A stretch of DNA of 64,000 nucleotides from Phycisphaerae bacterium. GTDB taxonomy: Bacteria; Planctomycetota; Phycisphaerae; JAAYCJ01. Under the pieces are notes generated by a model. It searched no databases, was not told where the DNA came from, and saw only the letters and a program-made list of their open reading frames with translations. How positions within the stretch are numbered: the first letter of the stretch is position 1; each line of letters starts with the position of its first letter. The DNA is taken from contig JBAZZQ010000003.1 in assembly GCA_041658725.1 (NCBI GenBank), positions 22,903 through 86,902 of the forward strand. Direction: 5' to 3'. Of the stretch, positions 8,616 to 49,620 are shown one piece after another. The position numbers and the translations under genes were made by a program.

Positions 8616-8851
8616 TAAATGTCCTTTTCTGCAACTTGCATAACCAAGACTGGTTTATCCATTTGAAGGCGATCGTAGCGTATCGATCCACTGCTTCAAA
8701 TAATCAACAGTTAGAAAACAAGCATCTTCCATCTATCGTCAAACACAGACGAGATGCCTTGATCAAATTCTTGCCGAAAAGCCTCTTTAAAAAAATGGGA
8801 GGCTCTAAATATAATACTTGACTATTGATGTAAAATCAATTACAATACCAG

Positions 8852-8876
8852 TGTAACGTTCAGGTAAACGTTACAC
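8852..8876. promoter_or_regulatory. Imperfect palindrome GTAACGTTCA-GG-TAAACGTTAC, candidate LacI-family operator
   Basis: 10-bp inverted repeat (9/10 match) around an AACGTT core, about 20 bp upstream of the lacI-remnant start. The same element recurs upstream of the intact lacI. Confidence 0.4.
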
Positions 8877-8895
8877 TTAAAATGTAATATTTCAC

Positions 8896-9286
8896 GATGA
8901 AGAAGAGATCTTTTGCAACAATTCGGGACATGGCGTCGATGTCCGGGCGAATGGCCGTCCCGGGTGATCGACTGAAAGTGCGTGGATTTTCCAATTGATA
9001 TCCCCACGGCCCCGAATTGCTTCAAGAAACGGTTCTCGCACCCAGAGATATGGGAGGCCTTGGGTCCGAGCCTTGGTCCACGGCATCTGTCTGTTACAGC
9101 ACCTTGACCGCTCTGGAGCCATACGCCCCTGCTAGCGCAAGGGCATCGAGGTTCAGAAGGTTTTTGCCATGGTGGCCTTTGACGAGCTTTGGGAGCGGGC
9201 GGAAATCGCGTATCTGGCAAGGCCGTTCCAGCAAGATTCTACCGCTCCGATTGAATGTCCGGGAATCCATTTTCAAAATGCTCTAA
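8896..9286 (+). pseudogene. LacI-family regulator pseudogene (internally deleted, frameshifted copy of the 13968-15008 gene)
   Basis: The first ~13 codons (MKKRSFATIRDMA) match the intact lacI N-terminus, and homology resumes at the C-terminal third (VCYSTLTALE...ILPLRLNVRESIFKML). The copy has multiple deletions and frame changes and is about 390 bp versus 1041 bp. Confidence 0.75.
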
Positions 9287-9305
9287 CGAGATTTCAGTTT
9301 CAATT

Positions 9306-9330
9306 CCTCCGGGTTGTGTTGACCCGGAGG
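9306..9330 (+). promoter_or_regulatory. Stem-loop CCTCCGGGT-N7-ACCCGGAGG in the leader of gene 9366
   Basis: Perfect 9-bp inverted repeat. It lies 36 nt upstream of the ATG and is not followed by a U-tract, so it is a leader structure or operator rather than a canonical terminator. Confidence 0.3.
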
Positions 9331-9365
9331 GGTTGAAACAAAATGTGTAACTAGGGAGTACGAAA

Positions 9366-12300
9366 ATGAAAAAGGTGGTTCTGTGTCTGATCGGTCTTGG
9401 GATGGCGTTGACATTCCCAACGCTTGCGGCGGCAACGCCGCCCGCCCTGATCTTTGGGGCGGATTACAACTACAGCGGGATAGTCAAGGCCAACGAAAGC
9501 ATCACGGGGAATACGAACGTCCGCGCCCTTGGGAGCGGCTCGGAAGATTCCTTCGGTTTTTCTTTTCAGATCGCCGACGGGAAGTGGGGCGGCGGGATGG
9601 AGGTGCTTCCGGAGCAATACAGCAGCCGCGTCCGCTATGATGTTCCAGACAATTTCAGCACCAGCAACGGAATGGTGGAAGTCTGGTTCAAGATGACGGG
9701 AACAAACAACAGCGATACCTACCTGATCGACCTGGGAGGCGGAAATTATCTGAAGTGGGAGGTTTCGAGTTTGGACCTGGTGGCGGTGCTGGCGGGGGCG
9801 ACGGTGCGGTACCATGTCGGAAGTATCGACGATAACGCCTGGCACCACGCGGCCATGTCCTGGGGCGACGGCGGCCACTGGAAAACCGGCAAACGGCTGT
9901 GGTTCGACGGCTATGAACGGGCGTGGAACACCGGCCATACGACCGCCTTGAGCGGGGTGACGCACATCGGCGTGGGCGCGCCGAGCTATGGTGGGGTCAC
10001 GGCGATTATCTACGATGAACTGCATGTCTACGATGTTGGCTACAACGATTTGGTGTACTTTGCTCCGAACCAAGGCGAGCCGGGATACTACGGTGAGGTG
10101 GAGCCTCTGGCCACGCCCTATGCAAACCCGCCCGCCCTGATCTTTGGGGCGGATTACAACTACAGCGGGGTGATCAATGCCAACATGAGCATTAATGGAA
10201 GCACCCTGCTCCGTCCTGATGGCTCGGGGGAAGAGGATTCTTTCGGCGATCTGACCTCGGAGGCCACCGGATACGGCAAGTGGGGCGGCGGACTCCGAAT
10301 GGGGCCCAGCAACTGGAACAGCCGCGCCCGCTATGATGTTCCCGACAATTTCAGCACCGCCAATGGGATGGCGGAGGTCTGGTTCAAGATGATGGGGAAC
10401 AATGACAGCGATACCAACCTGATCGATCTTGGAGGTGGGAACTTTTTACGCTGGGAGGCCTCGAGCGGAGATTTGGTGGCCGTATTGGCGGGGGCAACGT
10501 TGCGATACAACGTCGGACAAATTGACAACGATACGTGGCACCACGCGGCCATGTCCTGGGGCGATGGCGGCCACTGGAAAACCGGCAAACGACTGTGGTT
10601 CGATGGCTATGAGCGGGCGTGGAATACCGGCCATACCACCGCCCTGAGCGGCATATCGCATGTCGGTGTGGGCGCGATTAGCTACGGCGGGAACACAGTC
10701 ATTATGTTTGATGAACTGCATGTTTACGATAGCGGCTACAACGATCTGGTGTACTGGTCTCCGAACCAGGGCGAGCCGGGATACTACGCGGAGGTTGGAC
10801 CCTTGATACCGCTTACGTATTCCATCAACACCGCCGCAGGTACACCCTTTAGTCCGGGCGTCCGAGGCCACCATCCTGAATGCATCGGGGTCCATCGCGG
10901 TGAATACACCACAGGAATTCCGAAGCTGTTGCCGGTTTCCGACGGCACGTTCCTGCGGGGCCTAGCGGCGGGCTTGAAGGCCGAAACCTACGACTGGCGC
11001 AACCGCTTTGAGTATGGCGTGCCGGCCAACGGGCTGGGTCAGCCGACGATCGAGTTTCTGCGATACCAGCGGGACCGGAATTCCAGCATGATCAATACCG
11101 TCAACACCCGGGGCCTGACGCGGCAGGTGGGACAAACGTGCGAGTATTATGATACGCGTCTGTCCACGCTGGTGAGCCTGGCGACCGACTGGGTGCGGTA
11201 CACCAACCACATCGTGCAGACGTACCGGCTGGGTGATACGATTTCCGACCCGAGAGATGCGGGCATTGTCAACTCCCTTTCCTGGAAAACACAAGGGGAT
11301 ACGTCCGATCAATTCGAGCCACTGCTTTTCCCCCAGGAAGCCGCAGTGCCCAAAGTGACGTATTGGGAGATCGGCAACGAACCGTCGATGAACTTGTCGG
11401 CAACTAATTCCTACACCCTGACCCCTGCTCAATTTCATGATCGGTACGCGGCGATCGCGGCGGCGATGAAGGCCGAAGACCCGACCATCAAGGTCGGCCC
11501 CAGTGACCTACCGGGTGGCGATTACATCAATGCGGTCGTGTCGGATCTCAGTTTGCCCGTGGACGTTGTCTATTACCACACGGTCTTCCGGGGCAACCTT
11601 GGGACAACCAATGTGGACGACATTATATCCCTTCTGAACGGTATCTACTGGGATGAAAGGAGCGTTATGGACCCGATTGTCGCCATCATTGCCGCCAGCG
11701 GACGTGATCCCGCGACCATTCCCCTGGCGATTACGGAATGGAACCCGGACTATGCCTATATGGATGCCCCTTCGATCGGACGCATGGCGCAAGCTCTGGG
11801 ATGCATGCAGGCGGTCTTCAGTTTTGCTCGGATGGGGATATTCGATGCCAATTACCTCAAGTGGCCGGCGGATACCCGGGACGGCATGGAGTACCCGGTT
11901 TACAAGGCTTGGCAGGTCCTCAACGACCACATGGGCGACACATTGGTTGACTTCTGGAACGAAGCGTGTTTCCAACTTTATACCACGAAAGATAACGCGA
12001 CGGGCCAAGTGGCGGTCTGGGGCCTGAACTTCAGCAATACCACCGACAAGACCATGCAGATATCCCTTGACCAACTCCCGCCAGGAGCGACCAATGTCAC
12101 ATGGAAGCATCTGGGGGCACTTTCCGGTCTCTCCACATTATTGACCGGGAATATTTCTGCGTACGATGCGGGTGGCCCTCAGGTGAATGTGGATTGGAAG
12201 ACTTGGGATTTAAGCGGCATCTCGACCTCAAGCCTGACGTTCCATGTTCCCCGCGCGAGCATGTGCGTGCTACTAGTCGGTTCACCGTCATTGAAGGTCA

Positions 12301-13463
12301 GCCCGCAGACCCAGACGGTCTTCTGGCCGGCCGCGCAATTCAACATCACCGTGAACAATTCCGGGGCTGGAACCCTGGATTGGACTGCCGCAGTCATCTC
12401 CGGAGCGAGCTGGCTTTCCATTGGCACGACCAGCGGGACCGACCACGGGACAATTACCGTCAGCGCCGATGAAAACTCCACCGCTGCCGCCCGAACGGGA
12501 ATCATCCGTGTAACGTCCGGTGCCGTATCCAAAGACGTGACGGTGGTGCAATCCACCATGCCGCCGACTTCGAACATCACTTCGCCGCTCCAGGACAATA
12601 CGTCCACCGCTCCGGCTACTATTGCCATCACGGATAATGCCACCGATAGCAACGGCACGATCAACAAGGTGGAATTCTACAACAACGACGTCTTGCTGGG
12701 CACAGATAACAACAGTTCCGGCGGATGGACCTACAGTTGGGCGAACGTGGCGGCCAGCGGCGACCATGGAATCAGTCTGACCGCGAAAGCCTACGATAAC
12801 GACAACATGAGTACGACGTCCAACCCAGTCACCATTACCGTCACTGACAGTGCCCTCAAGTGTTATTGGAAGCTCGACAATACGAGTGGCACTACGGCGG
12901 TCGACTCATCGGGCATCGGCAACGTCGGCACCACGTACAACAGCCCAAGTTGGGTGACGGGAAAGATAAGCAACTGCCTATCTTTTGATGGTTCCAACGA
13001 TTACGTCCAGAAAACCAGTGCTTCGAGTCTGCCGGCCGCCAACGCCAACCAGACCGAGTGTTTCTGGTTCTATGTCTCAAGTAACCCTTCAGCCAAGAAG
13101 ACCGCTCTGGCTGTTACGGGCAGTTCCTCAGCCGTCAATATCGGGTTTGTGAGTAGTAGCGGGATGAAGTTCGGAGTGTGGAAGTATAACAACACCGTCC
13201 TGGTCAAGGCCGCCATGCCCGCGGCCGGGGCCTGGCATCATGCTGCCTACACAAAGAGCGGCAGCACCAACACCTTGTACATCGACGGTTCTCCGGTAAA
13301 TACCTCCACCACGAGCACCAATACGGCGTCGGCGACGACAATCAACGCCGGACGTACTGCCAGCGGCGCGTACTATTGGCCTGGTAAATTGGATGAAATC
13401 CGCATCTATAACCGAGCTTTGTCGGCGACGGAAATTGCCGCCTTGGCGCAAGGCAAACAATAG
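9366..13463 (+). CDS. Secreted multidomain glycoside hydrolase: signal peptide, 2x LamG-like modules, GH-A clan (GH39/GH30-like) TIM-barrel domain, BACON-like domain, Ig-like domain, C-terminal Laminin_G_3 domain
   Basis: - 1365 aa with a signal peptide (MKKVVLCLIGLGMALTFPTLAAA).
- Two ~220-aa repeats carrying WHHAAMSWGD, KRLWFDG and YDELHVYD (LamG-like).
- GH-A clan acid/base motif YWEIGNEPS and nucleophile motif LAITEWNPDY.
- BACON-like segment SWLSIGTTSGTDHGTITVSADENSTAAARTGIIRV...VTVVQ.
- C-terminal LamG signature LDEIRIYNRALSATEI. Confidence 0.85.
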   Translation: MKKVVLCLIGLGMALTFPTLAAATPPALIFGADYNYSGIVKANESITGNTNVRALGSGSEDSFGFSFQIADGKWGGGMEVLPEQYSSRVRYDVPDNFSTSNGMVEVWFKMTGTNNSDTYLIDLGGGNYLKWEVSSLDLVAVLAGATVRYHVGSIDDNAWHHAAMSWGDGGHWKTGKRLWFDGYERAWNTGHTTALSGVTHIGVGAPSYGGVTAIIYDELHVYDVGYNDLVYFAPNQGEPGYYGEVEPLATPYANPPALIFGADYNYSGVINANMSINGSTLLRPDGSGEEDSFGDLTSEATGYGKWGGGLRMGPSNWNSRARYDVPDNFSTANGMAEVWFKMMGNNDSDTNLIDLGGGNFLRWEASSGDLVAVLAGATLRYNVGQIDNDTWHHAAMSWGDGGHWKTGKRLWFDGYERAWNTGHTTALSGISHVGVGAISYGGNTVIMFDELHVYDSGYNDLVYWSPNQGEPGYYAEVGPLIPLTYSINTAAGTPFSPGVRGHHPECIGVHRGEYTTGIPKLLPVSDGTFLRGLAAGLKAETYDWRNRFEYGVPANGLGQPTIEFLRYQRDRNSSMINTVNTRGLTRQVGQTCEYYDTRLSTLVSLATDWVRYTNHIVQTYRLGDTISDPRDAGIVNSLSWKTQGDTSDQFEPLLFPQEAAVPKVTYWEIGNEPSMNLSATNSYTLTPAQFHDRYAAIAAAMKAEDPTIKVGPSDLPGGDYINAVVSDLSLPVDVVYYHTVFRGNLGTTNVDDIISLLNGIYWDERSVMDPIVAIIAASGRDPATIPLAITEWNPDYAYMDAPSIGRMAQALGCMQAVFSFARMGIFDANYLKWPADTRDGMEYPVYKAWQVLNDHMGDTLVDFWNEACFQLYTTKDNATGQVAVWGLNFSNTTDKTMQISLDQLPPGATNVTWKHLGALSGLSTLLTGNISAYDAGGPQVNVDWKTWDLSGISTSSLTFHVPRASMCVLLVGSPSLKVSPQTQTVFWPAAQFNITVNNSGAGTLDWTAAVISGASWLSIGTTSGTDHGTITVSADENSTAAARTGIIRVTSGAVSKDVTVVQSTMPPTSNITSPLQDNTSTAPATIAITDNATDSNGTINKVEFYNNDVLLGTDNNSSGGWTYSWANVAASGDHGISLTAKAYDNDNMSTTSNPVTITVTDSALKCYWKLDNTSGTTAVDSSGIGNVGTTYNSPSWVTGKISNCLSFDGSNDYVQKTSASSLPAANANQTECFWFYVSSNPSAKKTALAVTGSSSAVNIGFVSSSGMKFGVWKYNNTVLVKAAMPAAGAWHHAAYTKSGSTNTLYIDGSPVNTSTTSTNTASATTINAGRTASGAYYWPGKLDEIRIYNRALSATEIAALAQGKQ

Positions 13464-13707
13464 AACGGACCAATACTGTTCATGCTTATAAGTAGGCAAT
13501 CAGCAGTGTAGCCGAAACTAAGCAAGACGATCAAAACGGTGGGTCGAAAGACCTGCCGTTTTCTTATTCCAAGATCGATTTGACCATCGTTCAAATTCTG
13601 GGACTTAAAAGCGCGTAAAGACTTTGCATTAGACGTGAGTTGTTTAAAATGCCATCTCTCAAAATTGTACTGATAATATATTGTCATTAATATGCTTAAA
13701 AAAATCT

Positions 13708-13841
13708 CGTAACCGTTCAGGCCACCTTCCGTCATTGCGAGCGCAGCGAAGCAATCTCGTAATGACGCCGGTTAATGAAGGAACGAGATTGCTTCGTCGC
13801 TGCGCTCCTCGCAATGACCACGAGGTGGTCTGAACGGATAC
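13708..13841. mobile_element. MITE-like element (~134 bp) with imperfect terminal inverted repeats and a 7-bp flanking direct repeat
   Basis: TIR-L CGTAACCGTTCAGGCCACC and TIR-R GGTGGTCTGAACGGATAC match at 16 of 18 positions as reverse complements. The interior is a further long imperfect palindrome (GTCATTGCGAGCGCAGCGAAGCAATCTCGT / ACGAGATTGCTTCG..CTCGCAATGAC). AAAATCT lies immediately outside both ends. Confidence 0.45.
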
Positions 13842-13922
13842 AAAATCTTATGCCCCAAAAAAAAGGAATATTCGAAAAATTAAGGGCTTGACTTTTATCG
13901 CAAAAGAAATTATATTGGATAG

Positions 13923-13946
13923 TGTAACGTTCAGGTGAACGTTATA
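13923..13946. promoter_or_regulatory. Imperfect palindrome GTAACGTTCA-GG-TGAACGTTAT, candidate LacI autoregulatory operator
   Basis: 10-bp inverted repeat (9/10 match) located 22 bp upstream of the lacI ATG. It is a paralog of the 8852-8876 element. Confidence 0.4.
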
Positions 13947-13967
13947 TTGTAAAGGTAATGTTCCACC

Positions 13968-15008
13968 ATGAAGAAAAGTTCTTTCGCGACAATTCGGGAC
14001 GTAGCGGCGGCGGCTGGGGTGTCCATGACCACAGTGTCAGACATCATTACGGGGCGATCTGATCGGTTTAAGGAAGAGACATTAATGCGGGTCCGCAAGA
14101 CGGCGGAAAAGCTCAGTTACCGGCCCCATCTGGGGGCTTCGGCGATGCGAAGCCAACGGTTCAATACCATCGGTCTGATCCTTTCGCAGTCACCGTTTTA
14201 CGAGGCCAAATTAGTTGAGGGCGTGGATGAAGTCGCTCATGCCCGGGAACTCGGGCTCATGCTGGTTCACATCGGCCCTGCGGAAGAGGATTTGCCGAGC
14301 TTGGTTACCCACAACCAGGTGGATGGGTTGATCGTGGACTGGACCTCTCCGAAGAAGATCGGAGTGGCAATTGAGAACTATCGTATTCCCGCCGTCTGGG
14401 TCAACAACGATCAGCATGCCCCGGAGAACTGCATCTGGCCGGACGACGAGGCGGGCGGGCGAATGGCCACGGAACATCTGATTGCTCTTGGTCATCGGCG
14501 AATCGCATTTTTGCGAGTTCCCCAGGCCATGCACCCTAGTCAGGAATTTCGATTGAAGGGTTATTGCCAAGCGTTGACCGAGGCGGGTTTGGAGCCCCGG
14601 GTGATCGACTGCGAGTGCTTGGATTTTCCCTTGGATATACCCACGGATCCGAATTGCTTTAAGAACCGGTTCTCACACCCGGAGATATGGGCGGACATGG
14701 AAACGGGATCCTGGCCCACGGCGTTTGTCTGTTACAGCACCTTGACCGCCCTGGAGCTATACGCCGCCTGCCAGCGTAAGGGCGTCGAGGTCCAGAAAGC
14801 CTTCGCCGTGGTGTCCTGTGACGAGCTTTTGGAGCGGGTGGAAATCGCGTATCCCGCCATCACCACCGTGGTGGTGGACCATGCCCTGATGGGGCGTCTG
14901 GCCGTGGACATGCTCTGCGAACGGATCGAAAACAATGGCAAGGCCGTTCCCAGCAAGATACTGCCGCTCCGATTAAATGTCCGGGAGTCCAGTTTCAAAA
15001 TGCCCTAA
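13968..15008 (+). CDS. LacI-family transcriptional regulator
   Basis: 346 aa. N-terminal HTH reads ATIRDVAAAAGVSMTTVSDII, followed by a periplasmic-binding-protein-like sugar-binding fold. Confidence 0.9.
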   Translation: MKKSSFATIRDVAAAAGVSMTTVSDIITGRSDRFKEETLMRVRKTAEKLSYRPHLGASAMRSQRFNTIGLILSQSPFYEAKLVEGVDEVAHARELGLMLVHIGPAEEDLPSLVTHNQVDGLIVDWTSPKKIGVAIENYRIPAVWVNNDQHAPENCIWPDDEAGGRMATEHLIALGHRRIAFLRVPQAMHPSQEFRLKGYCQALTEAGLEPRVIDCECLDFPLDIPTDPNCFKNRFSHPEIWADMETGSWPTAFVCYSTLTALELYAACQRKGVEVQKAFAVVSCDELLERVEIAYPAITTVVVDHALMGRLAVDMLCERIENNGKAVPSKILPLRLNVRESSFKMP

Positions 15009-15087
15009 CGAGATTTTAGTTTCAAATTCGCCGGGTTGTGTTGATCCGGAGGGGTTGAAACAAAATGTATAACAAAGGAGTACGAAA

Positions 15088-15912
15088 ATGAAAAGTGTGG
15101 TATTGGGTCTGATCGGTCTTGGGATGGTGTTGATATTCCCGACGCTTGTAGCGGCAACGCCGGACTACCTGGTCTTTGGGGCGGATTACAACTACAGCGG
15201 GGTGGTCAACGCCAACGAAAGCATTACGGGAAGCACGGTGATCCGTCCGCAGGGATTAACTGACGGCGATTCCTTTGGAACGATCACTCAGGTCGCGGGT
15301 GGGAAATACGGCGGAGGGATGTTGGTGGCACCCAACGAGAATAATCAGCGAACCCGGTATGATGTGCCCAGCGGGTTCAGCACCAGCAACGGGATGGCGG
15401 AAGTCTGGTTTAAACTCGAATCGGCCGATAAGATTACTCTGCTCGATCTGGGTGGGGACAACCTTGTGCGGTGGGACCCCGGCAACGGCAACCTGAACAC
15501 CTATTTGGGTTCGGCTGGCCTGTACTGGTACGCGGGGAATATCGCCGACGGCAATTGGCACCACCTGGCCGTGAGTTGGGGCGACTCAGCCAATTGGAAG
15601 AAAGGTAAACGGGTGTGGTTCGACGGTGCGAACGTGGCTTGGAACGATGGCGATTACTCTCTCTTGAACCCAACTTCTTATATCGGCACCCAGGAAGCAA
15701 ATGCTGCCGGGGGCGGGAACGTTTATTTTGATGAACTCCATGTCTATGGTCCAGGCTGGCAGAACCTCGTGTACTTTGCTCCGGGCCAAGTCGCGCCGGG
15801 TTACGTCGGCGAAATCACCGGGTTGGCCGCGGCCGTACCCGAGCCGGCAACCTTGATTTTATTGATGTCGGGATTAGTCGGTTTCATCGTCCGCAGACGA
15901 ACCATCGCATAA
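15088..15912 (+). CDS. Secreted LamG-like module protein with PEP-CTERM sorting signal
   Basis: 274 aa. Has a signal peptide and one copy of the ADYNYSGVVNANESITGS...WHHLAVSWGD...KRVWFDG...FDELHVYG module. C-terminus is VPEPATLILLMSGLVGFIVRRRTIA (PEP motif, TM helix, basic tail). AGGAG RBS. Confidence 0.85.
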   Translation: MKSVVLGLIGLGMVLIFPTLVAATPDYLVFGADYNYSGVVNANESITGSTVIRPQGLTDGDSFGTITQVAGGKYGGGMLVAPNENNQRTRYDVPSGFSTSNGMAEVWFKLESADKITLLDLGGDNLVRWDPGNGNLNTYLGSAGLYWYAGNIADGNWHHLAVSWGDSANWKKGKRVWFDGANVAWNDGDYSLLNPTSYIGTQEANAAGGGNVYFDELHVYGPGWQNLVYFAPGQVAPGYVGEITGLAAAVPEPATLILLMSGLVGFIVRRRTIA

Positions 15913-16040
15913 GCTAAAAACGATTTATCAGCCGGACCGCCTTCGCAAGCGATCCGGCTCTTTGAGGCACGTGTCCCAGATCGGTCCGAGGTTGTCGCCT
16001 CGGCGAAGCAAGGTATATAATTACATAAAGGAGAATCAAG

Positions 16041-19000
16041 ATGGGTACGAGAAAAATTGGTTATGGAGTGATGTTGGTGTCCTTGTCGATCATTCTTGCC
16101 CACACGGCGGTTTCGCAAGCAACGCCGGATTATCTAATCTTTGGGGCCGATTACAACTACAGCGGGGTGGTCAATGCCAATGAAAGTATTACTGGAAGCA
16201 CTGAACTCCGGCCGGAGGGCTCGGGGGGAGGAGACTCCCAAGGTACGATAACCCAGGTCACCGGGGGAAAATACGGAGGGGGTATGTTGGTGGCCGCCAT
16301 GGGGAATGATCAGCGGACGCGGTATAGTCTGCCCAGTGGGTACGACGCTTACAACGGGATGGTGGAAGTCTGGTTTAAAACGTCTAATGCGGACGATAAG
16401 CTTACCCTGCTCGTTGTGGGTGAGGACAACCTTGTGCGCTGGGATCCAAGCACTGGCAACCTGACTGCCTACCTAGGCTCGGCCGGCATGACCTGGTACG
16501 CGGGGAATATCGCCGACGGTAATTGGCACCACGTGGCCTTGAGTTGGGGTGATTCCGCCAATTGGAAGAAAGGCAAACGGCTGTGGTTTGACGGTGCAAA
16601 CGTGGCGTGGAGCGATACGAACTACTCCGTCATGAACCCGGCTACTTATCTCGGTACTCAAGAAGGAAATGCCGCCGGTGGCAATGGAGACGTTTATTTT
16701 GATGAGCTGCATCTCTATGGTCCAGGCTGGCAGAACCTTGTGTATAACTTGGGCGGAGCGCCGGGTTATTTCGGCGAAGTCGGTCCGTTGGCCGAGGCCC
16801 TCCCGGGAACAACCCCGGTGGGTATGGTCTTTGGCGCCGATTACAATTCCGCCGGGATCATCAATGCCAATACGAGCTCAACGGCCAGCAAGAACGTCCG
16901 TGCCCCTGGGAGCGGACCGGAAGATTCCTACGGTCTTTCTTTCCAGCTTGCCGACGGGAAATGGGGCGGCGGGATGAAGGTGCTGCCGGACCAAAGCAAC
17001 AGCCGCGTCCGCTATGATGTTCCAAGCGGTTTCAGCTCCGACAACGGGATGGTGGAAGTCTGGTTCAAGATGACGGGAACCAACAACAGTGACACCAACC
17101 TGATCGACCTGGGGGGCGGGAATTTCCTGCGGTGGGAGGTTTCCAGCGGAGACCTGGTGGCGGCGATGGGGGCGGCGGTAGTGCGATACAACGTCGGGCG
17201 AATCGACGACAATACCTGGCACCATGCGGCCATCTCCTGGGGTGCAGGCGGCACATGGAAACGGGGTAAACGACTGTGGTTTGATGGTGCGAACCGAAAT
17301 TGGAACGATGGCGACTTCACCCCCTTGAGCGGCGTGACGCATATCGGCATAGGTGCGCCAGGCTATGGCGGCGGGGATACGGCAATTATTTACGATGAGC
17401 TTCATGTCTATGACGTTCGCTACAATGACTTGGTGTACTTGGCTCCGAGCCAAGGCGAGCCTGGATACTCCGCGACGATTGGTCCCTTGTTTCCGGCTCT
17501 TGCCACCCCAACCACGGTCTATACCATCAACACCGCCGGGGGCACGTCCTTTAGTCCGGGCGTCCGAGGTCACCATCCCGAATGTGTCGGTGTCCATCGC
17601 GGGGAATACCTCCGGGGCATTCCGAAGGTCCTGGCGGTCTCGGACGGTACGTTCCTGAGGGGTCTGGCGGCCGGGATGAAGGCCGAGACCTACGATTGGC
17701 GAAACCGGTTTGAATATGGTGTGCCCGCGAACGGACTGGGCCAACCGACGATTGATTTCCTGCGTTATCAACGGGATCGAAACTCCACGATGATCAACAC
17801 CGTCAACACCCGGGGCTTGACGCGGCAGTCGGGAACGACCTGCGAATATTACGACACGAACATTACTACCTTAACGAACCTGGCCGCTGATTGGGTTCGC
17901 TACACTAACCACATCGTGCCGACGTATCGGCTGGGCAATACGATCACCGACCCGAGAGACGCGGGGATTCTCAACTCCCTTTCCTGGAAGACGGAGGGTG
18001 ATACGGCGGATCAATTTGAACCCCTGCTTTTCGCCCAGGAAAGCGCGGTCCCCAAAGTCATGTACTGGGAGATCGGAAATGAACCATCCTCGAACTTGTC
18101 GGCGACCAATTCCTATGTGTTGACCCCGGCCCAATATCGGGCTCGGTATCAGGCAATCACGGCGGCGATGAAGGCCGAAGATACGACCATCAAAGTCGGT
18201 CCGAGCGACGTGACGGCCGGAACTTACATTGACGAGGTCGTGTCGGATTCTTCTTTGCCGGTGGACATCGTTTATTATCACGCGACCTTTAGCGGCGATC
18301 TCGGGTCGCTTACCGATTCAAGTCAAATTCAAAACTTCTTGAACAACATCTATAGCGGTCAGCAGAGCCTCAAGAATGGGATTACGTCGATCATTTCCGC
18401 CAGCGGGCGAGACCCTGCAACCATTCCTCTGGCGATTACGGAATGGAACCCGAACTATTCATTGGCGGATACCCCTTCTGTCGGACGCATGTCGCACGCT
18501 CTGGGGTGCATGGAGACGGTGTTCAGCTTTGCCCGGCTGGGAATCTTCGATGCCAATTACCTCAAGTACCCGGCGGATTGCCGGGACGGGATGGAGTACC
18601 CGGTCTATAAGGCTTGGCAGGCTCTCAACGACCACATGGGCGATGTTCTGGTGGACGTCCATACCGAAACCGATTTCCGGATGTACACGACGAAAAACAG
18701 CGCGACGGGCCAGGTGGCGGTCTGGGGCTTGAATTTCAGTGACGCCAACGACAAGACCATGCAAATTACCCTCGACCAACTACCACAAGGTGTTACCAAT
18801 GCCACGTGGATGCGTTTGGGCGCCCTCTCCGGGACCAGCACGTTGCTGAGCGGAAATATATCTTGGTACGATGGCGGCCCTCAAGTGGACGTGGACTGGC
18901 GGACGTGGGACGTGAGCGGCATCTCGACTTCGAGCCTGACGTTCCAGGTTCCCCGCGCGAGCATGTGCGTACTGGTGGTGGGAACCTCGTCGCTAAAGGT

Positions 19001-19430
19001 TTCCCCGCAGACGCAAACTGTTTTCTGGCCCGCCACCTCGTTTGCGGTGACGGTTGGGAATACCGGAGGCGGTGCCCTAAGCTGGACGGCCCAGGTAATT
19101 TCTGGAACAGACTGGCTTTCCATTAACGTGGCCAGTGGGACCGATCACGGGACGATTCTCGTGACCGCCGCACAAAACTCCTCCGCTGCCCGAACGGGAA
19201 TCATCCGCGTGACGTCCGGTTCCGTATCCAAAGACGTTACGGTGGTGCAGGGCGGGCCCGTGACCATCCCCGGAGATGTCAACGGGGACGGCGTGGTCAA
19301 TGCGGACGATCTGTCGATCGTGCTGACGAATATGGATTCCAAGCCTCCGACGGATGCCCGTGCGGACTTGGATCAGGACGGTGAAGTCACATCGTCCGAC
19401 CTGGCGATCGTGCTGGCAAATATGCCATAA
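16041..19430 (+). CDS. Secreted multidomain glycoside hydrolase paralog: 2x LamG-like modules, GH-A clan domain, BACON-like domain, C-terminal type-I dockerin
   Basis: 1129 aa. The GH core is about 75% identical to gene 9366 (YWEIGNEPSSNLS, LAITEWNPNYS). C-terminal dockerin repeats are DVNGDGVVNADDLSIVL and DLDQDGEVTSSDLAIVL. Confidence 0.85.
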   Translation: MGTRKIGYGVMLVSLSIILAHTAVSQATPDYLIFGADYNYSGVVNANESITGSTELRPEGSGGGDSQGTITQVTGGKYGGGMLVAAMGNDQRTRYSLPSGYDAYNGMVEVWFKTSNADDKLTLLVVGEDNLVRWDPSTGNLTAYLGSAGMTWYAGNIADGNWHHVALSWGDSANWKKGKRLWFDGANVAWSDTNYSVMNPATYLGTQEGNAAGGNGDVYFDELHLYGPGWQNLVYNLGGAPGYFGEVGPLAEALPGTTPVGMVFGADYNSAGIINANTSSTASKNVRAPGSGPEDSYGLSFQLADGKWGGGMKVLPDQSNSRVRYDVPSGFSSDNGMVEVWFKMTGTNNSDTNLIDLGGGNFLRWEVSSGDLVAAMGAAVVRYNVGRIDDNTWHHAAISWGAGGTWKRGKRLWFDGANRNWNDGDFTPLSGVTHIGIGAPGYGGGDTAIIYDELHVYDVRYNDLVYLAPSQGEPGYSATIGPLFPALATPTTVYTINTAGGTSFSPGVRGHHPECVGVHRGEYLRGIPKVLAVSDGTFLRGLAAGMKAETYDWRNRFEYGVPANGLGQPTIDFLRYQRDRNSTMINTVNTRGLTRQSGTTCEYYDTNITTLTNLAADWVRYTNHIVPTYRLGNTITDPRDAGILNSLSWKTEGDTADQFEPLLFAQESAVPKVMYWEIGNEPSSNLSATNSYVLTPAQYRARYQAITAAMKAEDTTIKVGPSDVTAGTYIDEVVSDSSLPVDIVYYHATFSGDLGSLTDSSQIQNFLNNIYSGQQSLKNGITSIISASGRDPATIPLAITEWNPNYSLADTPSVGRMSHALGCMETVFSFARLGIFDANYLKYPADCRDGMEYPVYKAWQALNDHMGDVLVDVHTETDFRMYTTKNSATGQVAVWGLNFSDANDKTMQITLDQLPQGVTNATWMRLGALSGTSTLLSGNISWYDGGPQVDVDWRTWDVSGISTSSLTFQVPRASMCVLVVGTSSLKVSPQTQTVFWPATSFAVTVGNTGGGALSWTAQVISGTDWLSINVASGTDHGTILVTAAQNSSAARTGIIRVTSGSVSKDVTVVQGGPVTIPGDVNGDGVVNADDLSIVLTNMDSKPPTDARADLDQDGEVTSSDLAIVLANMP

Positions 19431-20398: not shown

Positions 20399-23300
20399 AT
20401 GCCGACAAAAACGATGAATTGGATCGTGTTGTTTTTTTTTCTTTCGCTTCTCGCTCGGTCTGTCGCGGCAGATGAGCCAAGCCCCGGGCCGTATCACCTG
20501 ATCTTTGGCATCGGCCTGCATGACGAAGGGGCCTTCACCCCCGTCGGTCAATCCGACGGCATGACGTTCATTGTCGAGCTGCGGTGCGATAACGAAACAA
20601 AAGAGATCTTTCGCCGTCACCGGCCCAAGGAGAACCATGCCCCGGAATATTTCTCGGCGGATATGTCACCGTGGGCGGGACGAACGATCCGGCTGCGGTT
20701 CATCGCCGATCCGGGGCCGAACCACAATGCCGCCTACGATTGGGGCGTTTGGATCGAACCGCGAATCGTCCGCGGGGTTGTACCCCCCAAGTGGTGGGAA
20801 CGGAAAAACCTGTTTCAAAGCGACAAACTTCGGGTCATCTTCGATGCCGTCGACTCTTATGAAAAGGCAACCCTCGGAGTTGGAGATAAAATCGGCTTGC
20901 GGGCAGGAGCTCAATTTAATCCCTGTTCCGTTCCGATCGGTTGGGGACTTCTTGGGTTTGCGGAAAAGTATAGCGGAAAGAAAAAAGTCCGCGGTATCCT
21001 GCACGAACCGGCATGGGATAACGAAGCCACCCTGAGTTGGGCACAATACACGTTGGTCCTGAACCTGGCGGGAACGCTCGTGAGTTCCGACACCGGCTCG
21101 AACACTAAGCGGATGGACACCTCGCAAGCGGCCCGAGCCGTTCGCCGACTTGACGAGGCCGCAACTCTGGGAAAAGAGTTGGATGCCCTGATCGCCCGGG
21201 GCCGGCGCCAGGGGTTGCAGATGCGGATGCCTCGGGTGACCGCGGCTGTGCTCAAGGTCTTTGTTCCGCGGCTCCGTGAGGATTTGGACGGGATTGCCTG
21301 GTACTGCGGACCGAATTTCCCCGGTTGGTTTTACAATAAAGGTACTCCGCCGGGATACGTCACGGTCAAAGTCAAAATGGCGGAAAAATCGCCCAAGGAC
21401 ATCTATCCCCCGGCTTTCATCGAGGAACGAAAACAGCGGGGAATCCTGCTCGCTCCCTACTTGGTGCAGACCGCGGGTCGTGCCCTGGCCGAGGCCCGCG
21501 AAATCCTCGCCCATCCCGAGGCGGATGTCAAGTTTCCCGAATATGATATGGGGAAATTGAAAATTCGCGACGGCTATTTCTATGACGGCGATCAACCCGC
21601 TCTCCTGACGGGTCTTTACACCAATCGGGACGTTAAACAAGACTATGACGCCATCTCGGAGATGGGGATATGCTTTACCCAGCCCGAGCGGTTGAACGTG
21701 TTTACCACCCTCGTTGGAGAGCAAGAAACCAGTCGAGGCTTCATCGATTCCTTTGTAGTTCGGGATACCCTGGAACCCGCTGGAAAGGCCAACATCGGTT
21801 GCCTCTTTGACCTGGGCTTACATTACCTGCCGGAGTGGGCGTATAAGAAATATCCCGACCTGACCAATCCGGGTTCGGACCACAATCACTACGCCCCTTA
21901 TCTGGTGACGTCGAAGGGCTTCCGCGACGTTGTCCGATGGTACCTGGACCAACTCGTTCCCACGACGGCCAAGTTTCCCATGACTCTGGGCTACGAGATG
22001 GGCAATCAGCCCTTCCTGAATCCCTGGTCGCCGGCGGTAATCCGTCAATTCCAAGATTGGGCGAAAATGGAATACAAGACGATCGATGCCGCCAACCAAC
22101 AATGGCTCAGTACCTTTACGTCCTTCTCCCAAGTTCAACCCGATAAGAATTTCCGGTTGATCCAGCCGGTGGGTCTGCGTTACGATTGGGTGAAATTCCA
22201 ACATCGGATCACCGGGGAATGGTACCGCTGGCTGAAGGCCGAATTGAACAAACACGATCCCCACGGCTGGGTGGAAGTCCAGCCGGCGGGCAACTTTTTT
22301 GATCCGCAGAAGTTTCCCGGCCACGATGCCCATCGCGTCGCCATCGACGAAGTTGACCTCTACCGAAATATTACGGATATCAGCGGGATCGACGCCTGCA
22401 CGTGGTTCTGGGGCCGGTTGGTCTACGACCAGGGCGGACAGTTTTACGACCTGCTGCGTTCGATCGCCCCGGCCAAGCCAATCGTTAATTTTGAGTACGG
22501 CCTGAGTACCTACAATTCCAAGACAATCTGGGACCCGGCCTACATCCGTGGGTCGTTGTGGTACAGTTATCTCCACGGAATGGGTGGCTGCACGACATGG
22601 ATATGGACCCTCGCGGAAGAACGCGATGAAACCCAAACCAATACCCTGGCCCGGTGGCCTGACAGGATCGAAACCTTCGGACGAACGGCCTTGGAACTCC
22701 GCCGCCACGCCCGGGCGATTGCGGCCTTCGGACGACCCTCGTCCGAGGTGGCCATGCTGTATCCGGCCCCCGCCCGGTGGTTCGCGGGAACAGGGCCGAG
22801 CGACTATTTTGAACAAGCCCGTGCCATGTGGAACGCCGCGTCCTTCCTCGATACTTCATTTGATTTTATCACCGATGAACAAATTACCGAAGGCCGATTG
22901 ACCCGCTATAAAATCCTGCTCATTCCATCGTCACCATACATGCAGGACGGCAGTTATCGGCATATTCAGAAATTTGTCCATCAGGGCGGAATTCTTCTCA
23001 CCAACGGCGGGTTGGGCTTCGACGCTTATGGCCATTCGCGTGAGACGGAGGATTTCCTGGGTTCCGCCCGGAATGCGGACCACTATGCCGTGGCCAGGGA
23101 AGCCGGAAAGAAATTCGGGCGCGGGATAGTGTATAACGTCCTTCCTACCTCGGCCGGAGCGTATGGTCTCCTGTTCCGGAGAATTTATGACCAAGCGGGG
23201 ATATCACGCCCGGTCCGTGTGAAAATGCAAACTGGATTGCCCAATTGGACAATCGAGGCCCGAACGGTAAAGGAAACGGATCGGGCTAACCAATATCTTT

Positions 23301-48469: not shown

Positions 48470-48994
48470 TTACTGCTCGTTATCCGAATCGGCGTATTGC
48501 GGCGGGCTCTTGCCGACGCGCTTGGTCACTTTCGGGTACGTTCCGAGCGGAGCCTGGTCCGCGATTGCCACGACGTTGATCTGATGCCACCAGTCGTCCC
48601 CGAAATCGAACCAGTAACCAAAGGCCTCGTCAACCTTCAGTCCCAGCGAGCCAATGGCAGTCCTGGTCACATCACCAGCAGATTTACGGGTTCCCTGTCC
48701 AGTATTCTCGGACGCACCACAGTTCGTATACCGACGGGCTTTCGGATCCATCGGGCCCTTGCCGCCGATCTGGAACTCATACATGTGCTCATCTTCACGC
48801 TCGAAGGCGCCGAAAATGGCATAGTGCAGGTCTTCGAGCGTCTGGTCGCCGCGAATCTGGATGGTCCGGGAGATGACTTTGTTCTTCTTGGCGAACTTCT
48901 CCGTCATTGGCCCGCTGATGATGGATACGTCCAGCGTGAAAAGCCGATCATCCTTCATCACCCAACCACCGGCTCGACTGCGTTGTTTGGCCAC
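48470..48994 (-). CDS. pRiA4b ORF-3-like family protein
   Basis: 174 aa. The C-terminal motif FGYWFDFGDDWWHQINVV matches the YxFDFGDxWxHxI signature of the plasmid pRiA4b ORF-3-like family. Confidence 0.6.
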   Translation of the reverse strand: MAKQRSRAGGWVMKDDRLFTLDVSIISGPMTEKFAKKNKVISRTIQIRGDQTLEDLHYAIFGAFEREDEHMYEFQIGGKGPMDPKARRYTNCGASENTGQGTRKSAGDVTRTAIGSLGLKVDEAFGYWFDFGDDWWHQINVVAIADQAPLGTYPKVTKRVGKSPPQYADSDNEQ

Positions 48995-49099: not shown

Positions 49100-49345
49100 A
49101 CAACACCACTAACATCGGTAACCGTTCAGACCATCAATGGGCCTGAACGGTTACCGAAATTCAGCTTTCATGACCTTCGAATATCCTGCATTACCAACTG
49201 GGCAAGGCATCTACCCGTTCACGTAGTCCAAAAGCTGGCCGGTCATAGCGACATCAAAACGACACAGCAGTATTACCTCTGCGTACAGGAAGACGATCTT
49301 GAAAAGGCAAGGCGAGTTCAATCTGAGATTCTGGAAACGACTCCG
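49100..49345 (+). pseudogene. Tyrosine recombinase (phage-type integrase) C-terminal fragment
   Basis: The reading frame encodes ...FHDLRISCITNWARHLPVHVVQKLAGHSDIKTTQQYYLCV..., i.e. box II (HDLR) through the catalytic Tyr motif (LAGHSDIKTTQQYY). The ~300 aa N-terminal to this are absent. It faces the 3' end of tRNA-Asp. Confidence 0.7.
49116..49156. repeat. Perfect 14-bp inverted repeat CGGTAACCGTTCAG-N13-CTGAACGGTTACCG (TIR-like palindromic unit)
   Basis: Read directly from the sequence. The arm is nearly identical to the TIRs of the MITE-like element at 13708-13841, and it sits exactly where integrase homology begins. Confidence 0.6.
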
Positions 49346-49448
49346 ACTGACCAAAAACTGACCAACTCCAGGCAAAATAGGCATTCTGAGGTAAAACGAA
49401 ATGAAAGATCAAGCACCTAAGTCCTTGATCCTTCATCACTTCCTTCAA

Positions 49449-49522
<74 letters not shown>

Positions 49523-49620
49523 GGTTATTTTCAACTCCTTATTACTAAACAATTTCCTACCGATTGTCAAGCGTACACATTAAAATTACAAAAAAACTTC
49601 TTAGATAACGAAATAGGAAA

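Follow-up and report, generated by a model that had tools for sequence, protein, structure and literature searches.

A probable IS66-superfamily MITE with a REPIN-like hairpin nested at its tip, upstream of a lacI gene in a Phycisphaerae bacterium

What is the long palindrome that separates a large surface-protein gene (gene A) from a downstream lacI-type regulator gene in the genome of a Phycisphaerae bacterium? The stretch analyzed here, hereafter the window, comprises the 64,000 nucleotides at positions 22,903 to 86,902 of contig JBAZZQ010000003.1 (GenBank assembly GCA_041658725.1). An original prediction, made from the letters of this stretch, had seen in the palindrome a 134-bp MITE (miniature inverted-repeat transposable element) bounded by terminal inverted repeats (TIRs) and a 7-bp target-site duplication (TSD). 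MITEs are a known kind of element. Our analysis makes it likely that the segment 13709-13841 is a non-coding composite of two nested palindromic repeats, namely an IS66-superfamily MITE and, at the tip of its hairpin, an unrelated REPIN-like hairpin.

Direct reading bore out the architecture proposed originally. A palindromic block of 134 bp (window 13708-13841) ends in CGTAACCGTTCAGGCCACC (13708-13726) and GGTGGTCTGAACGGATAC (13824-13841); the right arm (13824-13841), read as its reverse complement GTATCCGTTCAGACCACC, pairs with the left arm GTAACCGTTCAGGCCACC at 16 of 18 positions, and the heptamer AAAATCT adjoins the block on both sides (13701-13707 and 13842-13848). The block folds into one near-perfect long hairpin, with -82.6 kcal/mol (z = -11.4) on the + strand and -84.4 kcal/mol (z = -11.0) on the - strand, and none of 200 shuffled sequences was equally stable. 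Both other assemblies of the locus, which are independent (ENA ERZ27247322 and Logan SRR8449812), carry the element, the Logan contig ending within the hairpin.

The arms of the block belong to a family of 28-57-bp palindromes with GTAACCGTTCAG...CTGAACGGTTAC ends, which is present in many phyla and in metagenomes. Rather than a single copy devoid of related TIRs, a case for which a terminator or a structured RNA had been held in reserve, we found related TIRs in the exact two-armed pattern TAACCGTTCAG-N3-33-CTGAACGGTTA at at least 119 metagenome-contig loci. A genome scan recovered GTAACCGTTCAGRCC...GGYCTGAACGGTTAC, with the interior absent, in an Actinomycetota metagenome-assembled genome (MAG), a Methylococcaceae MAG and Ca. 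Epilinea brevis, the Actinomycetota MAG having three identical 36-bp copies at three loci. Three 28-bp variants are each identical across unrelated loci (9, 7 and 5 loci), and the local density can be extreme, with 14 arms within 14 kb of housekeeping DNA in some contigs. Within the window, the arm is matched with at most 3 mismatches 8 times, versus 1.7 expected, and the four matches with 0-2 mismatches are the arms of two elements. The second of these is the related palindrome that had been pointed out at 49116-49156; it is indeed there and carries the same arm, GTAACCGTTCAGRCC.

To define the duplication statistically, we matched the left flank against the right flank, 8 nt each, in 101 non-redundant copies, across which the 12-nt end is identical, and used all mismatched left/right pairings as a control. 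The flanks were identical at 8/8 positions in 7 copies, at 7/8 in 12 and at 6/8 in 9, the control values being 0.0, 0.04 and 0.59, respectively. This signal was lost when the register was moved by one base inward or outward. The duplicated octamers are moderately AT-rich (67% versus 53% in the flanks). Furthermore, the base outside TAACC...GGTTA is G...C in 79 of the 101 copies, which shows that the true ends are GTAA...TTAC. Perfect or 7/8 duplications of 8 bp are seen even with 28-bp copies (L222, L249 and L302), which consist of the two 12-bp ends plus 4 nt. Note that 28 bp would be an unusually small unit for DDE-type transposition.

With this register, the element proper, as judged from some 100 family members, starts at G13709 and spans 13709-13841, that is 133 bp, and its TSD measures 8 bp, AAAATCTC (13701-13708) versus AAAATCTT (13842-13849), with 7/8 identity. 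The duplication announced originally is thus real, but it consists of the heptamer AAAATCT plus a leading C and contains one substitution, and the element is one base shorter than 134 bp. The single-copy empty site would read ...TTAAAAAAATCT(C/T)TATGCCCC... No frame across 13690-13860 is free of stop codons, and no open reading frame (ORF) fits inside the 133-bp element, whose parts are the following:

13701..13708: left 8-bp TSD copy AAAATCTC, read directly, with register and length from the family statistics (7/8 versus the right copy)
13709..13726, + strand: GTAACCGTTCAGGCCACC, left TIR of the outer MITE, beginning with the 12-nt family end conserved in the 101 non-redundant copies
13727..13730, + strand: left half of the original MITE loop, TTCC, from folding after removal of the interior
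13731..13818: REPIN-like hairpin of 88 bp, nested, from the GTCATTGCGAG...CTCGCAATGAC family (-49.5 kcal/mol, z = -7.5), made of a short arm (13731-13759), a loop (13760-13783) and a long arm (13784-13818)
13819..13823, + strand: right half of the original MITE loop, CACGA, from direct reading and folding
13824..13841, - strand: right TIR, GGTGGTCTGAACGGATAC (reverse complement GTATCCGTTCAGACCACC), a GTATCC variant known from the ends of autonomous elements
13842..13849: right 8-bp TSD copy AAAATCTT, read directly

Once 13731-13818 is deleted in silico, what remains is a clean 45-bp hairpin (-30.4 kcal/mol; loop of 5 nt), whose length is within the 28-57-bp range of the outer family, and the interior is located exactly in the loop of this shell. 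The outer shell would accordingly be made of 18-bp arms and a 9-nt loop, with 5'-GTAACCGTTCAG...CTGAACGGTTAC-3' ends, and its insertion would have duplicated 8 bp (AAAATCTC/AAAATCTT).

Which transposase could recognize such ends? For ISDge4 (IS66 family, ISBst12 group), an 8-bp direct repeat has been published together with the TIRs GTGACTACTCAGCA and GTAACTGCTCAGCA (PMC12898284), and IS66 proper has inverted repeats beginning with GTAAGCG and 8-bp direct repeats (PMC11946415). ISGka4, whose transposition has been shown experimentally, was classed as an ISLre2 element by its authors (PMC8024623) and is annotated as 'IS66-like' by NCBI. On pHTA426 (L312), we directly read GTATCTATTCAGCCC...GGGCTGAATAGTTAC between two copies of gacgagtt; with the ends set at GTATC.../...GTTAC, this insertion sequence (IS; 14107-15742) is flanked by the 8-bp duplication GACGAGTT. 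Its transposase contains the DDE_Tnp_IS66, zf-IS66 and DUF6444 domains and has homologs in 192 plasmid records from many phyla.

We located the ends of such elements at 8 of 10 further plasmid loci and at 9 of 10 viral-contig loci, GTAAC-type ends not being located at the Pseudanabaena, Streptomyces and D. radiodurans loci nor at viral locus L327. A perfect 8-bp TSD flanks 15 of these 17 further elements (7 of 8 on plasmids, 8 of 9 on viral contigs); the imperfect ones are those of the B. thuringiensis element (5/8) and of L328 (3/8). The ends read GTAACTATTCAG, GTAACTGTTCAG, GTATCCATTCAG, GTAACTACTCAG, GTAACTGCCCAG or GTAACTACTTAG. Of these, GTAACTGTTCAG matches the MITE end at 11 of 12 positions, as does GTATCCATTCAG the right end of the window element, GTATCCGTTCAG. 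The GTATCC variant of the right arm is itself found in ISGka4 (GTATCTATTCAG) and at L323 and L324 (GTATCCATTCAG). Besides, the MITE end GTAACCGTTCAG begins with 5'-GTAA and fits the terminal consensus of the IS66 single-ORF group, of which the 8-bp direct repeat is likewise typical.

In view of the ends and of the TSD length that it shares with these autonomous elements, the outer shell is, as far as sequence comparison can tell, a MITE of the single-ORF IS66-superfamily group (ISBst12/ISLre2 type), in agreement with the initial assignment to the non-autonomous DNA transposons. An IS66-type transposase encoded elsewhere would bind both 12-bp ends in trans; insertion would take place at an 8-bp staggered cut, and gap repair would make the duplication. 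A search of the 2.4 Mb of collected loci for an autonomous partner returned none flanked by outer arms, the inverted arm pairs that are 0.9-4 kb apart in these loci being separate small palindromes around housekeeping genes.

The short palindromes might instead be what is left after the nearly precise excision of full-length ISBst12/ISLre2-type elements, without being mobile by themselves. In this scenario, the host would have removed the interior by replication slippage across the inverted ends, both ends and the TSD staying behind; Tn10 is said to leave a 50-bp palindromic remnant, as Foster et al. reportedly described in 1981. Consistent with such an origin, the MITE cores often resemble extensions of IS ends (copies read CAGACCCCCC at L147 and L245, autonomous ends CAGAACCCC and CAGCACCCC at L331 and L332), the 28-bp copies with TSDs seem very small as transposase substrates, and no partner with exactly matching ends was found. 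However, identical small elements recur at many unrelated loci (9, 7 and 5 for the 28-bp variants, and three in one Actinomycetota genome), and 14 arms in 14 kb of housekeeping DNA would require an implausibly large number of insertions, each followed by excision. Moreover, the 37-bp second copy of the window is 36/37 identical to the copy of another metagenome contig (L232), at an unrelated locus with another context. We therefore consider it unlikely that the palindromes are excision remnants, and favor MITEs that are mobile as such.

In human-gut contigs, the 28-bp version of the MITE often adjoins a second conserved hairpin, GGCATCCGnCC...AGCGATTTTCAATGGCCGGATGCC. This two-hairpin repeat is exemplified by L211 (2490-2570) and is also present at L218, L231, L238, L262, L264 and L278; it reaches a density of up to 14 arms per 14 kb, and few of its copies have a TSD. 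The gut copy of the outer palindrome at L211 gave no match in Rfam at permissive thresholds.

We next turn to the interior. Its arms consist of GTCATTGCGAG-CGCAGCG-AAGCAATC and a longer partner, in keeping with the family at large, where one arm usually has a conserved 26-nt short form and its partner is longer and variable; in the window, the long arm (13784-13818) contains two additional 3-nt blocks. A typical copy is a hairpin of 64-154 bp that reads (C)GTCATTGCGAG...AAGCAATCC-loop-GGATTGCTT...CTCGCAATGAC(G). The same arm, 26-32 nt long, is present in at least 120 viral contigs, and BLAST identified the family in plasmids of Novosphingobium resinovorum SA1 (27 places on one replicon), Halomonas, Methylosinus, Methylocystis and Methylobacterium. 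On those megaplasmids the copies are always unannotated and never accompanied by outer arms. The palindromic interior noted at the outset is therefore genuine, but it is not the core of the MITE: it is a separate repeat nested in it, which is found without the outer arms just as the outer family is found without it.

Each interior arm has the structure ATTGC-GA-[G-stem-GNA triloop-stem-C]-GAA-GCAAT. The upper stem displays compensatory changes (GCCC/GGGC, GCGC/GCGC, GCTGAC/GTCAGC and GGGC/GCCC), indicating that each arm is a REP-like stem-loop and that the pair is REPIN-like, by which we mean a likeness in architecture and not an established membership. Indeed, the interior is an inverted pair of imperfect palindromes without TSD, as REP elements require, but its sequence is not species-specific and, in the sequences searched, it has no cognate RAYT. 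When the E. coli RayT protein was used as a tblastn query, no match was obtained in the repeat-carrying plasmids and none in the window or the 120 viral loci listed, host chromosomes not being part of the search.

The 79 unique full interior copies showed no duplication at any register. Their flanks contain at least 6/10 complementary bases in 7 of the 79 copies versus about 2.6 expected, that is, the preference for palindromic flanks is weak. As it makes no target duplication, the interior family would have to spread by another route.

The family also occurs as single arms. The phage contig L010 (IMG/VR contig 3300010328_000003) carries six single interior-family arms between 3339 and 12744, all in one orientation, and several of them, including all four long-form ones, are preceded by a TTCTTTAG-type motif. 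In other phage contigs, a single arm immediately precedes a ribosome-binding site and start codon. A regulatory or punctuation signal, rather than part of a hairpin pair, is what the arm may be in phages.

Could the whole 133 bp nevertheless be one MITE unit, with the GTCATTGCGAG hairpin as its native core, that transposes as such? The TSD does flank the composite, and the 45-bp shell without interior was not seen at this site. On the other hand, both parts are independently numerous and the second copy of the window has no interior. In addition, no arms spaced by 85-115 nt turned up in a viral-contig scan, a search with a peptide read across the composite gave 0 matches, and the sole other composite among the collected loci is the same locus in another assembly (L001), long forms not having been searched for in the genome and metagenome collections. 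A single transposing unit is thus unlikely, and two nested repeats of different families remain our preferred interpretation.

Several observations weigh against the nested-MITE interpretation. The window contains no transposase of the IS66 single-ORF type, hence not the autonomous partner with the same TIRs that had been envisaged originally, and no autonomous element with exact GTAACCGTTCAG ends was found, the best matching at 11/12 positions. About 70% of the family copies with exact TIRs have no recognisable TSD, and this is also the case of the second window copy. Many human-gut copies are part of the larger two-hairpin repeat. For ISGka4, a 9-bp direct repeat was reported (PMC8024623) versus the 8 bp that we read on pHTA426, a discrepancy that may reflect an end definition off by one base. 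No close relative of the locus was found for an empty-site comparison (the best non-self LacI homolog is 75% identical), and the copies counted in the source genome are the two of the window. Finally, the interior may have inserted either before or after the MITE landed.

The surroundings of the composite comprise the following features:

9366-13463: gene A, with BACON/LamG domains
13533..13575, + strand: terminator-like hairpin of gene A (-19.6 kcal/mol), followed by the U-rich tail UUUUCUUAUU
13888..13916, + strand: lacI promoter-like site TTGACT-17-TATATT, sigma-70-like with 10/12 matches, 47 bp to the right of the element
13922-13946: operator-like palindrome GTGTAACGTTCAGGTRAACGTTAYA, 25 bp, shared with the paralogous lacI (8851-8875)
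13968-15008: lacI, downstream of the operator-like palindrome

The element thus follows the terminator of gene A and precedes the lacI promoter, and most likely has no host function. The 25-bp operator-like palindrome lies just downstream of the -10 hexamer at both lacI paralogs, so that autoregulation is suggested. Removal of one C from the MITE end GTAACCGTTCAGG would give the half-site GTAACGTTCAGG of this palindrome; we judged this likeness to be due to chance, about 0.8 such near-matches being expected per window by a rough estimate.

That the hairpin is a functional host element (terminator or insulator, structured RNA, or site related to the LacI operator) is very unlikely: it is very stable, a run of seven T follows it on the minus strand, where a terminator-like site was flagged, and its arm GTAACCGTTCAGG resembles the operator half GTAACGTTCAGG 80 bp away, but gene A has its own terminator upstream, the + strand has no U-tract after the hairpin, no minus-strand gene reads into it, the region upstream of the paralogous lacI has the operator and lacks the hairpin, and the same arms are found with TSDs in unrelated phyla and contexts.

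Three specific candidates were rejected. An intrinsic terminator, one of the two fallbacks considered originally, does not agree with the missing U-tract on the + strand, with the terminator that gene A possesses at 13533-13575, or with a minus-strand U-run that no gene reads into. The other fallback, a structured RNA, fared no better, as neither the region nor L211 nor the interior copies matched any Rfam 15 covariance model at gathering or permissive thresholds; a search of the whole window at gathering thresholds returned tRNA only. Lastly, an integron attC site is bounded by R''/R' core sites (RYYYAAC ... GTTRRRY) that enclose an imperfect palindrome, and the ends of neither the outer nor the inner palindrome fit this consensus.

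The element neighbors an old tandem duplication (8850-13463 versus 13921-19430, about 80% identity), which comprises the lacI-type regulator gene and the large BACON/LamG surface-protein gene; the duplicated genes hold further internal repeats of about 690 bp. A causal role of the element in this rearrangement had been put forward. Since the other two duplication boundaries in the window have no arm copy, which a repeat-mediated unequal crossing-over would call for, and the paralogs are only about 80% identical, such a link is unsupported. Recognisable paralogy fades some 7-15 bp beyond the right edge of the element, being detectable from about 13856 rightwards. For the same reason, the region upstream of the paralogous lacI, which we considered as an ancestral empty site, had to be rejected in this role.

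The second copy is found in a different setting:

49118..49154: second MITE copy GTAACCGTTCAGACCATCAATGGGCCTGAACGGTTAC, 37 bp, without the nested insert (-29.2 kcal/mol, z = -8.6)
49157..49351, + strand: C-terminal tyrosine recombinase fragment (PF00589, profile positions 127-166 of 172, E = 3e-8)
49448-49523, - strand: tRNA-Asp, next to the recombinase fragment

This copy has no TSD. The recombinase fragment, which corresponds to about the 65 last codons, begins right after it, and a gene encoding a pRiA4_ORF3 domain (48470-48994, - strand) neighbors the fragment. Together, the integrase fragment, the tRNA-Asp gene and the pRiA4_ORF3 gene look like a decayed integrated element whose integrase is truncated at the MITE. 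As it adjoins a truncated integrase next to tRNA-Asp, the 37-bp copy marks a breakpoint at which an old integrated element was rearranged. We conjecture that a neighboring deletion would account for its absent TSD.

What do these repeats mean for the genomes that carry them? Upstream of lacI, the element is best treated as selfish DNA, and searches for promoters, operators or RNAs should mask it. By their GTAACCGTTCAG ends, the palindromes make it simple to recognize a MITE family that is linked to single-ORF elements of the IS66 superfamily. Some gut and environmental genomes contain many of them; they disrupt short-read assemblies (as at L002) and could be mistaken for terminators or operators. 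The family also shows how little DNA an IS66-type transposase may need, possibly only the 12-bp ends. As for the interior family, it litters metagenome annotations with spurious ORFs, and its conservation across phyla deserves an explanation. The peptide motifs RHCEERSDEAI and DCFVASLLAMT presumably stem from such ORFs; protein and literature searches did not confirm them.

As far as we checked, no description exists of the assignment of the family, of how very small its members are or of the cross-phyla nested repeat: full-text literature searches with the MITE end returned unrelated primer coincidences or nothing, and the interior family is absent from Rfam (typical copies, permissive search) and from the literature searched for the arm sequence. 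We tentatively raise the possibility that two things are new here. One would be 'nano-MITEs' of down to 28 bp with precise 8-bp TSDs in several phyla, which, if true, would be among the smallest transposable DNAs known. The other would be a cross-phyla REPIN-like family without TSD or nearby RAYT-like partner, whose position at the hairpin tip hints at a mobilisation that targets hairpin loops.

How does the composite compare with known systems? The closest relatives of its outer part are ISGka4, ISDge4 and the other single-ORF elements: their terminal 12 nt, GTA(A/T)C-Y-R-Y-Y-CAG, are identical to the MITE ends at 10-11 of 12 positions, they make precise 8-bp duplications, and they too have the GTATC variant at one end. 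They differ in size and coding capacity, since they are 1.5-1.7 kb long and encode a transposase of 450-490 aa (DDE_Tnp_IS66), whereas the window elements measure 133 and 37 bp and have no ORF. At position 6, the MITE has C where nearly all autonomous ends seen have T. ISGka4 comes from Geobacillus kaustophilus and ISDge4 from Deinococcus geothermalis.

Among MITEs, Correia/NEMIS (Neisseria), ERIC/IRU (enterobacteria), RUP (Streptococcus pneumoniae) and MITEAba12 (Acinetobacter) share with the outer family a small size, an intergenic position and the absence of coding capacity, as well as TIRs, a TSD of fixed length, folding into long hairpins and a presumed mobilisation in trans. Their sequences are unrelated to those studied here, and their parent IS families and TSD lengths are different. 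The outer family is also much smaller (28-57 bp without insert) and spans several phyla, versus one genus for these MITEs.

The interior resembles the REP/REPIN system (RAYT, TnpA_REP) in that two inverted stem-loop units of about 26-35 nt are separated by a short spacer, are intergenic, make no TSD and show compensatory changes in the upper stem. However, REP sequences are species-specific, whereas Alpha- and Gammaproteobacteria, a Phycisphaerae MAG and many viral contigs have the interior arm in almost the same form. The nesting itself has a counterpart in heterocystous cyanobacteria, where Elhai et al. are said to have described, in 2008, small dispersed repeats nested inside MITE-like hairpins. 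There too, palindromic repeats harbor other, very small mobile repeats, but the units are 21-27 nt long, have other sequences and hosts, and are not REPIN-like.

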